Shown piece after piece: positions 6,590 to 10,600 of a stretch of 24,019 nucleotides of DNA. Below the pieces are notes generated by a model, which was given only the letters and a program-made list of their open reading frames with translations, made no database searches and was not told where the DNA came from. Origin of the DNA: Candidatus Hydrogenedentota bacterium (GTDB taxonomy: Bacteria > Hydrogenedentota > Hydrogenedentia > Hydrogenedentales > SLHB01). The stretch covers positions 1-24,019 of the forward strand of contig JARKSN010000106.1 in assembly GCA_029974275.1 (NCBI GenBank), read 5' to 3'. The position numbers were made by a program, and so were the translations under genes. Position 1 is the stretch's first letter. The number at the start of each line of letters is the position of its first letter.

Positions 6590-8167
6590 TCACTCCGCCT
6601 TGTACAGCGATGGGTCCGCCTCGGGATGATCGAGGAGGGACATCGGCATGCCGTTTTTCCTCAGGGTTTCCTCGACGGACGCCTCGGCGAAGGCCTGGAA
6701 TCGTTTCGCCCCCTCTTCGCAGTCGATGCGGCCCTGGATGATCTGAACGAGCATTTGGCGCGCGTCTTGGGTGAGGCGGCTTCCCTGCGGCGCGAGACCG
6801 AACAGGCGGTTGACGTCGTTCTCGGCATTGCCGATCATGGCATAGACGGCGTTCATGCGCTCATATTTCTCGGGGATTTTCACGCCGCGCACCATGAGCT
6901 TGCCCGCTGGTCGGAATTCCTTCTCGGCGATAGAACCATCGATGAACACTTGATGTCCCGGCGCGGACAACCAGAACATGACGAAATCAACGCAGCGATC
7001 GATCTGGGGCTGGTTTTTCGCGACGATGCTGACGTAGACGCCCGCCGAGGATTCGATGCTGCGCGCGGGAGCCTTCACAAGCGGACCGGTGAGGGAGGGC
7101 GGCTCGAACGTCGCCCATCGGAACGCGCGCAAGGGGCCAGACCCGCCTTTGTGATTGCGCAGATCCTCCATGTCCTCGTCGATCTGCGGGAGCAACCACG
7201 TGCCATCCAGGTGGATCGCCGCGTCCTGACGCACGAACAGACTATAGGGGTCGGCCCCCGCGCCCGCCTGCTCCACGAGAAAATCCGGCGGGGTATACCG
7301 CGCGATTTCCTTCATGCGTTCGAGGAACTCGACGAACTCCGGCGTGTCGTAGCGAATGATGCCTTTGTGTATCGCCCGTTCCAGACGCATGAGGTTGAGG
7401 GTGGGAAGGGCGCTGTTGAAGGGGTCGGCGGGATCGTATTTCCACACGCCGTCCGTTTCCGGATTGAAACACCAGTCGCCGGGTTGGGCGCGCAAGTGCT
7501 CGATATGCGGACGGCTGTACTGGTCCCACAAAATTTCGGCGAGCCATTGGTGGTAGCGGAAGTCAAAGCGGAGCGTGGTCGGTATCTTGCCCGCCGCTTG
7601 AATCTTTGCGCACACGTCCATGAACTCGGGCCACGTTTTCGGCGGCGACAGGCCCAGGCGCTCGAACATATCGACGTTGTAGAACCACATGATGTGGACG
7701 GCCTGCGTAGGGAGCATGCTGCGGATGCCCAGGGTTGTCCTGAAAACGCTGAAGTCGAAATCGAGGTCCTGGTCCCAGCGATTGCCCGTGTAAGGATTGA
7801 CACAGCGGCGGTAGTAGTCAAAGTTGACGTAATGCGCGTAGCCGACACAGTAGTTGCCCGAGACGATGTCGGGGCGGGGCTTGCCCGAAGCAAGCTGCGT
7901 GCTGAGCCACGTGGGGTAATTGTCGCTGCCGCCGACGCTGCCGCCGGTGACCTCGATCTTGATGTCGACGTCCGGCTGGAACTGTTTGTACGCCTTCGCC
8001 AAGGCGCGCAGCCCCGCCGTCTGCGTGGGATCGCCGACGGTGGCGATAACGATGGATCCGGAATACCGAGGGCGTTCGGCGGCGTGGGCCATCGCGCACA
8101 GAACAAAAGCCGCCAAGCATGCTCTGCCCGCCATGTCGCATACGTTCGCCCGTAGCCGTGTCCGCAT
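6590..8167 (-). CDS. ABC transporter extracellular solute-binding protein (sugar-binding family 1)
   Basis: Signal peptide ending AMAHA; motifs 'YKQFQPDVDIKIE', 'FYNVDMFERLGLSPPKTWPEF', 'DGTW'; directly upstream of two permeases. Start ATG 8167 or 8134. Confidence 0.88.
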   Translation of the reverse strand: MRTRLRANVCDMAGRACLAAFVLCAMAHAAERPRYSGSIVIATVGDPTQTAGLRALAKAYKQFQPDVDIKIEVTGGSVGGSDNYPTWLSTQLASGKPRPDIVSGNYCVGYAHYVNFDYYRRCVNPYTGNRWDQDLDFDFSVFRTTLGIRSMLPTQAVHIMWFYNVDMFERLGLSPPKTWPEFMDVCAKIQAAGKIPTTLRFDFRYHQWLAEILWDQYSRPHIEHLRAQPGDWCFNPETDGVWKYDPADPFNSALPTLNLMRLERAIHKGIIRYDTPEFVEFLERMKEIARYTPPDFLVEQAGAGADPYSLFVRQDAAIHLDGTWLLPQIDEDMEDLRNHKGGSGPLRAFRWATFEPPSLTGPLVKAPARSIESSAGVYVSIVAKNQPQIDRCVDFVMFWLSAPGHQVFIDGSIAEKEFRPAGKLMVRGVKIPEKYERMNAVYAMIGNAENDVNRLFGLAPQGSRLTQDARQMLVQIIQGRIDCEEGAKRFQAFAEASVEETLRKNGMPMSLLDHPEADPSLYKAE

Positions 8168-8293
8168 TGACAATGCCCCCCGGCTCATCCCGCTTGAAAC
8201 CCAATGCCGCGATTCCGACGCGAGACGCCTCCCATCCGCACGATTGAGTTGCGGCGTCACAAACGAAAACGCCCTCGCCTTTTCCCCAGCGGC

Positions 8294-8322
8294 ATTATAC
8301 ACGCTCCCGGAACCCATGGAAA
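8294..8322 (-). promoter_or_regulatory. Putative sigma70 promoter of the ABC operon
   Basis: Minus strand TTTCCA-17 nt-TATAAT. Confidence 0.55.
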
Positions 8323-8398
8323 ATCCGGGAGACGATGAATCAGGCCCCCTCCTCCCGATCCGAGGACACGCAAGCATTTTTTGGCCAGAAGATTTTTC

Positions 8399-8427
8399 TT
8401 GTATACGGGAGAAAAGTGTGATATAAG
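8399..8427 (+). promoter_or_regulatory. Putative sigma70 promoter (extended -10) of the RRM genes
   Basis: TTGTAT-17 nt-TATAAG with TG at -15/-14, in an AT-rich patch. Confidence 0.55.
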
Positions 8428-8433
8428 TACGTA

Positions 8434-8763
8434 CATGGGGTGCCGGGGTTGGCGCCCAAACAACAGATAGACGTGTGGGATAGACGGTCAAGTTTCCAAG
8501 AAAACCCTTCAAAAAGAACCAGTCCGGCCTGACGCTCTCCTTTGGTCCCTTCGCCATGAGTAGCAAGATCATCTTCGAGCGTGCGGTGCTACCAGGAGCG
8601 AAGAAAATTGCGAAAACATCGAGAAACAGACCCAAAAGCCTTCCACTCATCCGCTTTCGCGCGACGAACGCATCTGTTTTGTCTATGCCATGGGGGCAAT
8701 TCCTTGCGTCTGAGTCTGACGCAGGGTTATTTGTTGGGAATGTGACGTGAAGGAGATGTCAGC
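8434..8763 (+). promoter_or_regulatory. Long structured 5' leader of the RRM operon (candidate cis-regulatory RNA)
   Basis: Complementary segments found by eye: 8529-8543 with 8749-8762 (covers the SD), 8549-8565 with 8587-8603, hairpin 8702-8726. TSS inferred from the promoter. Confidence 0.5.
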
Positions 8764-9096
8764 ATGAATATTTACGTGGGCAACCTGTCGTACAGCACAA
8801 CGGAAGATGACTTGCGCAACGCCTTTGAGGCGTATGGGCAAGTAAACGCCGCCCGGGTCATGATGGATCGCGAGACGGGCAAGCCGCGCGGGTTCGGATT
8901 TGTCGAGATGGCCGATGCGAATGAAGCCCAGGCCGCGATTGCCGCCTTGAATGGCCAAGACCTCCAGGGCCGCACCCTTAAGGTCAACGAGGCGCGTCCC
9001 CAGGAAGATCGCCGGGGCGGCGGCGGCGGCGGCGGACGCGGCGGCTACGGTTCGCGTGGCGGCGGCGGTGGCGGCGGCTACGGTTCGCGCTGGTAA
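8764..9096 (+). CDS. RRM RNA-binding protein with Gly-rich tail (Rbp-like), copy 1
   Basis: RNP2 'IYVGNL', RNP1 'RGFGFVEM', 'GRTLKVNEARP', RGG/GYG tail; SD AAGGAG. Confidence 0.97.
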   Translation: MNIYVGNLSYSTTEDDLRNAFEAYGQVNAARVMMDRETGKPRGFGFVEMADANEAQAAIAALNGQDLQGRTLKVNEARPQEDRRGGGGGGGRGGYGSRGGGGGGGYGSRW

Positions 9097-9238
9097 CAGG
9101 CGGGCTGTTTGTAATAGCTGGAATGGGCTGGAACGCCTAACGGAATGCCGGAGTAGGTGGTTTGCGTGCGGAGGTCCGGCCGGACATATCGGGTAACGCC
9201 CTCGAAAAGAGGGAAGAAGACAGAACAGGAGAAAAGAG

Positions 9239-9544
9239 ATGAACATCTACGTCGGCAACCTCTCGTACAGCACCATGGACAGCGACCTCCAAGCCACTTT
9301 CGAGCCTTTCGGCACGGTCACGTCCGCTCGCGTCATCATGGACAAGGTGACGGGGCGTTCGCGCGGTTTTGGTTTCGTCGAAATGGCGAACAACGAGGAA
9401 GGCAAGGCGGCGATTGCGGCGATCGACGGCAAGGAATTGCAAGGCCGCGCGCTCAAGGTCAACGAGGCGCGCCCGCAGGAAGATCGTCGCAGCAGCGCGC
9501 CGCGCGGCGGATCGCGTGGCGGCGGCTACGGCTCGCGCTGGTAA
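9239..9544 (+). CDS. RRM RNA-binding protein with Gly-rich tail (Rbp-like), copy 2
   Basis: RNP2 'IYVGNL', RNP1 'RGFGFVEM', ends GGYGSRW like copy 1; SD AGGAG. Confidence 0.97.
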   Translation: MNIYVGNLSYSTMDSDLQATFEPFGTVTSARVIMDKVTGRSRGFGFVEMANNEEGKAAIAAIDGKELQGRALKVNEARPQEDRRSSAPRGGSRGGGYGSRW

Positions 9545-9568: not shown

Positions 9569-9612
9569 GACGCTTCCTTTCGTCGCGAGACGAAAGGAAG
9601 CGTCTTTCTTTT
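9569..9612 (+). terminator. Intrinsic terminator after the RRM pair
   Basis: Perfect 16-bp stem GACGCTTCCTTTCGTC / GACGAAAGGAAGCGTC, GCGA (GNRA) loop, then TTTCTTTT. Confidence 0.92.
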
Positions 9613-9655
9613 GGATTCACGGATTCGTCTGGTCGCGTCGCGTCAAAAGAGTCGA

Positions 9656-10600
9656 TCACTCTTCCGCGGCCAGGGCCTGCGCGACGTCCTCGGGCGACGG
9701 AGGATCCGTGTCCCAAAAATGTCTTTGCCTGCCATCCTCGACCAGGAAAAAGCGTGGCGGCGCGCTGCCGATAAACGTCATGAACGTCAGCGCGTCAATC
9801 GCGAGCCAAGGGAATTCAGGCGCGGTCTGAAGCAGGAAGGCATCGATTTCGCTCGAAGATCCCATCAGGAGAGCCACGACAGGGGGCATGCCGGGCATCT
9901 TCCCGAAATCGTTCAGGACAGCGACCGACGCGACGCAGTGCTCGCACGAAGCGCTGAGCATGGCGACCAGGAATCGGCCCTCGCCGAGATCGACGCGGCG
10001 CTCGGGGCGCTCGAAGACAAACTGGGCGAAGGGCCGGTTGCTGGATGCGTGCGAACGGTCTGGCCTCGCGGGCGCCGGGGACGCCGTGGCGGTGGCATAT
10101 ACGCCGACGCCCAACACGATGACGCCACATACGACGGCGACGGCGATCCGTGCGGCCATCGCCCGCGGCGCGGAGGACGCGTCGCGCCAGAACCCTTTCG
10201 CCCACCCCCGCCAAACGGCCGCCATCAAGCCCATCATGACGATGTTTTTGAGGATGGAGGGCCCCGGCGCCAGTTCAATGTATTTGCCGAAACAGCCGCA
10301 ATCGGCCAATCCCTGAAAGCGCCAGGCGTATAGGATCAGCGCGCTGAACCCCAACAACATGGCTTCGGTGGCGGGATACAGCAAGCCCCGGAAGCGAAAT
10401 CCGGCCACCATTGCCGCGCCCAACAACGTTTCCGCGATCACGCTCCCGTATGCGGCCAGTTCCACCCAAAAAGGATCGCGCACGATGCCATAGGCCGAAA
10501 CCTGAACGGCAAACGAGGTCATATCCAGCGCTTTTAGCGCCGCCGCACCGACAAAGGTCGCGCCGACCAGAATCTCCACCCATCGCAATACGGTCTTCAT
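9656..10600 (-). CDS. MauE/DoxX-family membrane protein fused to a thioredoxin-like CxxC domain
   Basis: TM helices with 'AAALK', 'ETLLG', 'DCGCFG' (MauE-like), then a soluble domain with 'SASCEHC' and 'APPRFFLVEDG'. SD GGAGG precedes ATG 10600. Confidence 0.8.
   Translation of the reverse strand: MKTVLRWVEILVGATFVGAAALKALDMTSFAVQVSAYGIVRDPFWVELAAYGSVIAETLLGAAMVAGFRFRGLLYPATEAMLLGFSALILYAWRFQGLADCGCFGKYIELAPGPSILKNIVMMGLMAAVWRGWAKGFWRDASSAPRAMAARIAVAVVCGVIVLGVGVYATATASPAPARPDRSHASSNRPFAQFVFERPERRVDLGEGRFLVAMLSASCEHCVASVAVLNDFGKMPGMPPVVALLMGSSSEIDAFLLQTAPEFPWLAIDALTFMTFIGSAPPRFFLVEDGRQRHFWDTDPPSPEDVAQALAAEE

Follow-up and report, generated by a model that had tools for sequence, protein, structure and literature searches.

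Does the long RNA leader that precedes a tandem pair of RRM genes in a Candidatus Hydrogenedentota bacterium function as a genetic switch, and if so, to what does it respond? The window is the whole stretch of DNA that was analysed, 24,019 nucleotides in length (GenBank assembly GCA_029974275.1, contig JARKSN010000106.1). An earlier note on this DNA had proposed that the Shine-Dalgarno (SD) sequence of the first gene can be buried by a strand located far upstream, and that the leader is an undescribed thermosensor or an RRM-autoregulatory element. Our analyses favour a reading, with a probability of about 0.5, in which this 330-nt leader is a cspA-like translational switch that passes from ON to OFF co-transcriptionally and is likely tuned by cold and by RRM proteins; it is built on predicted folds and on analogy. 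The leader itself is real, and its predicted two-state layout is credible and recurs in the phylum.

Genes, promoter and transcript

Two RRM_1 genes (PF00076) were found behind the leader, in agreement with the tandem arrangement described earlier. The locus includes the following features.

8399..8427, forward strand: predicted sigma70-type promoter, with −35 TTGTAT at 8399-8404, 17 nt, and an extended −10 TG-A-TATAAG at 8419-8427; start near 8434
8434..8763, forward strand: 5' leader of RRM1, approximately 330 nt, twice the phylum median of 167 nt
8764..9096, forward strand: RRM1, 110 aa, a single RRM with a Gly-rich tail (PF00076, 89 bits); AUG at 8764
9239..9544, forward strand: RRM2, 101 aa, a single RRM (PF00076, 76 bits)
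9569..9612, forward strand: terminator-like intrinsic hairpin with U run, 16 pairs (hairpin 9569-9604), located 3' of RRM2

The start near 8434 and the leader length of approximately 330 nt follow from the position of the promoter at 8399-8427. This site (8399/8422) holds the top forward-strand score in the interval 8200-9230, at 9.3 bits in our own weight matrix, versus 3.7 bits for the best candidate in the same scan that would start transcription downstream of 8543; a consensus promoter scan missed the 8399-8427 site. The leader length given in the earlier note is therefore the one that fits the best promoter score, and transcription is predicted to begin upstream of the anti-SD strand, as these scores and, weakly, RNA contigs from 8445/8446 suggest.

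RNA-library contigs from two studies match 8445-8665 and 8446-8781 with no mismatch, with the qualification that strand and start are not readable from contigs and that DNA in the libraries is possible. Because one of them spans 8446-8781, the anti-SD strand and the SD are present on a single RNA-library contig. The contig start shared at 8445/8446 is less than a weak hint of a 5' end because a DNA run has a coverage hole at 8373-8567; a contig from a third RNA run begins at 8573. Three RNA runs are without cover at 7700-8392 and 9625-10000, where the DNA run is covered, and such absent cover counts as no evidence. Among the contigs of four of 21 sequencing runs there were no sequence variants in the leader, and the leader is not a genomic repeat. 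On the reverse strand, a divergent promoter-like site at 8294-8322 belongs to a solute-binding-protein gene.

A predicted long-range helix that would sequester the SD

The SD and its proposed partner are separated by most of the leader.

8529..8543, forward strand: anti-SD strand, paired in the OFF fold according to partition-function folding
8749..8762, forward strand: SD (AAGGAG, 8750-8755) together with the spacer; base-paired in the OFF fold

The helix between these strands was recovered as originally described: 14 bp (8+6), two of them G-U pairs, interrupted by a bulged C at 8535, with the last pair 1 nt short of the AUG. Partition-function calculations on the full leader assign its core a probability of 0.97-1.00 at 10-50 °C and leave the SD at most 2% unpaired up to 50 °C, while the AUG becomes more accessible with warming (0.01 at 10 °C, 0.49 at 50 °C).

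Long complementary stretches can arise by chance, and several measures of that chance were obtained. The anti-SD duplex has an energy of −19.8 kcal/mol, versus −13.9 ± 2.1 kcal/mol in 500 shuffles (p = 0.018), and p = 0.075 under a looser measure that allows large loops. When complete folds of 169 shuffled leaders were computed, 4% matched the SD-pairing probability of the natural leader and 10% matched its opening cost. A duplex of equal strength occurs in 5 of 53 control leaders from the same genome, and the minimum free energy (MFE) of the whole leader is no better than that of shuffled sequences (z = +0.5). Taken alone, the 14-bp helix is modestly beyond chance (p 0.02-0.10) and suggestive only. 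No orthologue of the 330-nt version against which the covariation of 8529-8543:8749-8762 could be assessed was found in 134 other genomes, and the predicted helix particular to this leader stands as unproven.

These values would fit an incidental, lineage-specific complementarity in a pyrimidine-rich stretch, with the leader acting only through its 5'-terminal hairpin and through mRNA stability or protein-binding sites. The lack of an orthologue and of membership in leader family B, described below, point the same way. However, the anti-SD strand has the same place and a matching sequence relative to the SD-pairing site of family B, and long-range SD pairing is in excess across the phylum. We consider incidental pairing unlikely.

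A predicted alternative fold completed before the SD is made

Folding of successively longer prefixes of the leader points to a second structure with the following elements.

8438..8457, forward strand: P1, a 5'-terminal hairpin with a GGUU-type loop (P 0.94-0.99) that matches P1 of family B leaders
8461..8470, forward strand: 5' strand of P2*, the closing helix of the predicted ON fold, from prefix folding
8727..8736, forward strand: 3' strand of P2* in the ON fold, from prefix folding
8518..8546, forward strand: P3*, ACCAG 8518-8522 paired with UUGGU 8542-8546, an ON-fold helix that encloses most of the anti-SD strand
8549..8603, forward strand: helix 8549-8565:8587-8603, which fits both folds and contains an SD-like AGGAG at 8594-8598
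8702..8726, forward strand: stable hairpin with a U-rich run behind it, common to both folds and also scored as terminator-like

P2* (8461-8470:8727-8736) has a probability of 0.98-1.0 in the prefix that ends at 8740 and 0.57-0.97 in the prefix to 8748, and falls to 0.00-0.01 with the SD present. P2* and the anti-SD helix are mutually exclusive because the two helices cross; the genes, the complementary strands and this exclusion are direct observations. When P2* is enforced at 37 °C, P3* forms, and it is the counterpart of a covarying NCCAR/YUGGN helix in family B. In the P2*-enforced fold the SD is predicted to be 80-84% unpaired and the AUG 25-36% unpaired. The ON ensemble lies 2.9-3.7 kcal/mol above the OFF ensemble at every temperature from 10 to 45 °C, and direct-path barriers between the two, which are crude upper bounds, amount to 20-21 kcal/mol at 37 °C and 34-38 kcal/mol at 15 °C. 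The flat gap and the barrier together fit kinetic or protein-assisted control, and not melting. Fold prediction for an RNA of 330 nt is error-prone.

Several elements of the earlier structural proposal survive in altered form. Its hairpins at 8438-8457 and 8702-8726 are predicted with P 0.93-0.99. A helix that it placed between 8455-8469 and 8728-8738 exists; however, its true extent is that of P2*, and it excludes the anti-SD helix. The helix 8549-8565:8587-8603 is likewise predicted, with P falling from 0.86 at 37 °C to 0.03 at 10 °C, but it is not an exclusive alternative, as the anti-SD helix encloses it and both can be present at once. The switch partner that had been named, 8537-8540:8595-8598, proved wrong: this pairing has P = 0.00 in the full leader, and its highest value in any nascent prefix is 0.43, reached in one of them. 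It was rejected as the alternative fold, being 8-10 kcal/mol less stable than the closed state.

The U-rich tail of the terminator-like hairpin at 8702-8726 is also the 3' strand of P2*, so the choice of fold could influence attenuation; the site is read through by one RNA-library contig.

The proposal of a thermosensor invites comparison with RNA thermometers of the ROSE and FourU types, which are local hairpins in which the SD pairs to an anti-SD strand and which melt on heating. The 330-nt leader shares SD pairing to an anti-SD strand with these RNAs, but its helix is long-range (the partner is 205 nt away), is predicted to be stable to 50 °C, and has a crossing alternative fold. It does not resemble a local hairpin around the SD with a melting point at growth temperatures, given an unpaired SD fraction of at most 0.02 to 50 °C. 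A zipper-like thermometer, shut at low temperature and opened by heat, would account for the increasing accessibility of the AUG. In contrast, the SD remains closed over the same range, the gap between ON and OFF is flat with temperature, and related cyanobacterial Gly-rich RRM proteins are often cold-expressed (PMC12232666). A melting thermosensor is thus not predicted, and we consider this possibility the most remote of those examined.

Leaders of RRM genes across Hydrogenedentota

RRM matches occur in 109 of 135 Hydrogenedentota genomes, with 207 matches in total (150 among the matches listed). From 154 distinct RRM genes, eight with less than 230 nt upstream were dropped to leave a set of 146. 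A promoter score of at least 7 precedes 130 of these 146 genes, in the same position and of the same type, and the resulting leaders have a median length of 167 nt (interquartile range 157-178 nt). The leaders cluster into family B (28 members), family A (25), family F (24), family E (9) and smaller groups. No Rfam leader family was found in the 20 RRM loci tested.

Helices P1, P2 and P3 of family B covary, with two-sided changes in 15 of 22 pairs and in none of 500 shuffles to the same degree. The homology model for this family (R1) finds representatives in 18 of 135 genomes and seven genera, with members scoring 48-153 bits; among the 30 loci kept, an RRM gene follows in 25, a contig edge intervenes in four, and one weak match (22.5 bits) has none. 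Support for family A is weaker: its covariation score is reached in 0 of 500 shuffles, and two other measures are not significant. In the 24 leaders of family F, one near-invariant strand has two possible partners, an internal one (pairing in 95% of cells) and the SD with its spacer (91%), and both the ON and OFF helices exhibit one-sided changes only, with no two-sided change. The family F model (R2) finds representatives in 12 genomes of one family, and when the F pattern was sought in all GTDB genomes an RRM gene was adjacent in 11 of 43 matches, the rest of which look like chance. When used alone, RNAalifold yielded no consensus structure in family A, nor did it recover P2 in family B or the SD helix in family F. 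The structures of family A, family B P2 and the family F SD helix were set by eye and then counted, and they are therefore favoured over slid controls; some family A columns and one family F hairpin are off by one. Families A, B and F are three new cis-RNA families, covarying or highly conserved, that have no Rfam entry.

Some leaders deserve separate mention. Family F leaders (e.g. L048:893-1043 and L101:451-610) are the cleanest case of a switch in this collection, having one strand with two conserved partners, and in four of them (L070, L071, L098, L099) two central pairs of the SD helix are replaced by tandem purine mismatches in the same register. Six RRM genes (L132, L133, L135, L138, L148, L155) follow a tmRNA gene of the same orientation at a distance of approximately 110 nt, with a family E leader and the usual promoter seemingly absent. 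The genome that carries the 330-nt leader has a third RRM gene (L061), on another contig, with a 140-nt family C leader and an 8-bp anti-SD strand, for which the predicted SD partner is local below 45 °C. At two loci (L010, L066) the typical leader gives way, as judged by eye, to a short reading frame that precedes the RRM gene and is related between the two. A GG(G/U)U loop is present in 32 of 85 RRM leaders versus 8 of 53 controls; because it was found in only 4 of 40 leaders from other taxa, the 5' GGUU loop was rejected as a general feature of RRM leaders outside the phylum.

Predicted SD sequestration in the phylum

For statistical comparisons, 118 leaders of 120-340 nt were reduced to 85 by removing those more than 75% alike. 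An SD could be scored in 84, the 330-nt leader included. The 53 control leaders all come from one genome, that of the 330-nt leader. Pairing of the SD to a site more than 40 nt upstream (P > 0.5) is predicted for 46 of 84 RRM leaders versus 7 of 53 controls, and a nascent long-range helix that is lost upon SD pairing is predicted for 28 of 84 versus 3 of 53. At P > 0.9, long-range SD pairing is predicted in 26 of 80 leaders, whereas shuffles of the same leaders give an expectation of 8.25 (Wilcoxon p = 5e-4, or p = 0.009 when family F is left out). Pairing at this level is distributed among families B (7/17), A (6/17), F (5/7), C (2/4) and D (2/4), and there is no excess among unclustered leaders (4/31 versus 3.0 expected). 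A plain duplex test is weaker, with z < −2 in 19 of 85 RRM leaders versus 3 of 53 controls (p = 0.04) and equal mean energies.

Leaders were also compared while paired with their own or with swapped ribosome-binding sites. Own pairs are better in families A (p = 0.007) and F (p = 0.013), and have no advantage in families B (p = 0.17), C, D or E when pairing is unanchored. All of these p-values overstate the case, since related leaders are not independent of one another and every start is a prediction. Anchored pairing in family B favours own pairs (p = 0.009), a test that was chosen after the unanchored one failed. Of the 24 family F leaders, only one is predicted to flip its fold with temperature. 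At the level of the phylum (46/84 versus 7/53), and with published analogues in cspA and the Bacteroides rbp genes, the idea of a regulatory RRM leader that sequesters its SD is supported; the switch partner first named is not, and a melting thermosensor is not predicted.

Relationship of the 330-nt leader to family B

Close relatives of the 330-nt leader are scarce. A metagenome scan with RRM1 yielded 80 loci at 48-68% protein identity, none of them close, and at the DNA level the leader had nothing longer than short matches in 135 genomes. The two best of seven such matches were set aside: one lies in a reading frame, which we take to be that of a phosphofructokinase-like protein, and the other is 21 nt long in a locus without an RRM gene. 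The family B model fails to align with the 330-nt leader at full length, reaching 9.9 bits (E 0.063) for P1 only. The family F model, which represents the GUCGAUCAGC strand with its two partners, has no match in it.

When the leader was compared with the RRM loci, only two short matches were obtained. Both are to family B leaders at matching positions, each with E 0.26, and they correspond to P1 and to the anti-SD strand with the following UUGGUCCCUUCG. P1 has 21/24 identity to family B leader L004. Nucleotides 8533-8554 match, with 19/21 identity, the stretch that precedes an invariant CUUGG in family B leaders, a family marked by a YCC-YUUGG site at about +100. Within family B itself, the SD pairs at the site matching this anti-SD strand in 10 of 28 leaders, and P3 is lost each time; in the other 18 there is no SD pairing at that site, and P3 forms in eight. 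From these sequence matches we infer that the 330-nt leader is probably related to family B, having diverged from it and grown in length.

Upstream reading frames

The additional length of this leader raises the possibility that it is translated.

8608..8745, forward strand: candidate 45-codon upstream open reading frame (uORF), doubtful, sharing the frame of RRM1, with a TTG start located 9 nt after AGGAG and a stop 4 nt before the SD

Nucleotides 8592-8610 align with the SD and start of family B leaders, which suggests that approximately 155 nt were added behind an older ribosome site, possibly leaving behind an in-frame uORF. If ribosomes on this uORF, halting 4 nt short of the SD, were to open the anti-SD helix, then RRM1 output would follow translation of the uORF. 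The position of AGGAG before the TTG, the frame shared with RRM1, the stop that adjoins the helix, and the alignment with the family B ribosome site are all compatible with such coupling. However, no homologue of the uORF was found in 134 other genomes, its start codon is weak, its SD is buried in helix 8549-8603, and the 167-nt leaders of relatives have the switch layout at half the length. Translational coupling therefore strikes us as distinctly improbable.

A second frame, with an ATG start (8556-8750), has no Pfam match and no SD discernible by eye. Its end (8729-8750) reads LFVGNVT, similar to the RRM start IYVGNLS located 35 nt downstream. This segment may be a relic of a duplicated gene start or a product of chance.

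Comparison with known systems

Rfam presumably carries the E. coli cspA leader under the name cspA thermoregulator, and a 1998 Anabaena paper reportedly concerns the leader of rbpA1. E. coli cspA mRNA adopts an SD-exposed fold when transcribed in the cold, and its SD is partly occluded in the 37 °C fold (PMC9947658); its leader is given as 159 nt in PMC13370968. The resemblance to the Hydrogenedentota leaders consists of a long leader (159 nt versus the 167-nt median here), a small RNA-binding protein encoded downstream, and two folds in which the SD is exposed or occluded (here by prediction only), with the outcome dependent on how the RNA was made. In contrast to cspA, the downstream gene here encodes an RRM rather than a cold-shock domain, there is no Rfam match, the anti-SD of the 330-nt leader lies within the leader 205 nt upstream, and the equilibrium gap between ON and OFF is flat at 10-45 °C.

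A second parallel is found in the rbpA/B/C genes of Bacteroides thetaiotaomicron, which encode single-RRM proteins behind leaders of 122-155 nt and are subject to negative feedback at 21 °C, partly via the 5' UTR (PMC13370968). Whether these 5' UTRs have a cspA-like thermosensor role is posed as an open question by the authors of that 2026 preprint. These genes resemble those studied here in encoding single-RRM proteins behind a leader, and their leader-linked feedback parallels the feedback proposed here. They differ in that the available text of PMC13370968 gives neither a structure nor an anti-SD mechanism.

The leader had been called undescribed, and it has no match in Rfam 15, but another phylum already has a catalogued RNA of this sort. 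Chlorobi-RRM (RF01697; PMC2864571), the one such RRM-leader RNA found, is listed as cis-regulatory ('cis-reg y'), not as a switch, with 73 positions. Judging by its name and entry it is, like the 330-nt leader, a structured element of RRM genes, and by eye its 5' hairpin, CCA-RYGG-UUGG, is similar to P1 of this leader (CCGGGGUUGG) and to family A (CAAUGGUUG). It differs in phylum, in its 73-position extent and in its listing as a non-switch. The leader is not a member: the best score of the Chlorobi-RRM model in the genome is 19.8 bits versus a 45-bit cut-off, and it falls outside the leader locus. No description of Hydrogenedentota RRM leaders was found in the literature searched. RRM is not mentioned in the accessible main text of a paper on 224 motifs (PMC5737381), and its supplement and that of PMC2864571, whose text covers Chlorobi-RRM, may contain related RRM motifs.

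A proposed mechanism and its implications

In the reading that we prefer, the nascent RNA would adopt the ON fold, composed of P1, P2* and P3*, which is predicted to be complete before the SD is made and to leave the SD free. The full-length RNA would then relax to the OFF fold, approximately 3 kcal/mol lower, in which the anti-SD helix blocks the SD, such that translation likely depends on the speed of RNA refolding. By analogy with cspA and the Bacteroides rbp genes, cold or early ribosome loading might allow the ON fold to persist and RRM protein to be made. Conversely, warmth or accumulated RRM protein, serving as an RNA chaperone, might hasten the transition to OFF and thereby create negative feedback. 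The same logic may operate in several sequence-unrelated leader families of Hydrogenedentota.

A trans-acting factor other than an RRM protein, such as a CsrA-type protein or a small RNA, could instead toggle or block the leader. Four GGA words occur in the leader (8478, 8595, 8737 and 8752), but none of the four resides in a hairpin loop of the 37 °C MFE structure, and we judge such control to be highly improbable.

We tentatively extend the kinetic switch reading, at somewhat less than even odds, to a broader proposal in which RRM genes possess their own undescribed class of co-transcriptional switch. Unrelated Hydrogenedentota leader families would have kept or re-evolved one design, a nascent closing helix and a crossing anti-SD helix, as a cspA-like sensor of cold and of chaperone feedback, and RRM proteins would trade places with cold-shock proteins. 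Match counts for RRM and cold-shock domains are inversely related over 66 genera (rho −0.36), where the counts are of matches and not of gene copies and the genomes are incomplete. Cold-shock matches average 2.85 per genome in the 26 genomes without an RRM match versus 1.6-2.1 in those with one.

Among genomes of family f3 (G026, G037, G070-G081), the RRM query used gave a match in 0 of 14, and cold-shock-domain matches are present in 14 of 14, mostly two to five each. Leaders of cold-shock genes gave no long-range SD pairing in the five with a scored SD among 12 examined. Four cold-shock-domain genes (L268, L269, L271, L272) share a second type of conserved leader, approximately 110 nt long, with GGAUU near its 5' end and AAUCC just before the SD, for which long-range SD pairing is likewise not predicted.

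Hydrogenedentota are uncultured, and tests in the native host are thus limited. For several independent families, these leaders define which strands pair in the ON and in the OFF structure, so that mutations and their compensatory rescue can be designed, and the question of whether rbp leaders are thermosensors is therefore directly testable in vitro and with E. coli reporters. If the proposal is true, cspA-type kinetic control would follow the job of RNA chaperone and would not be tied to genes for cold-shock domains.
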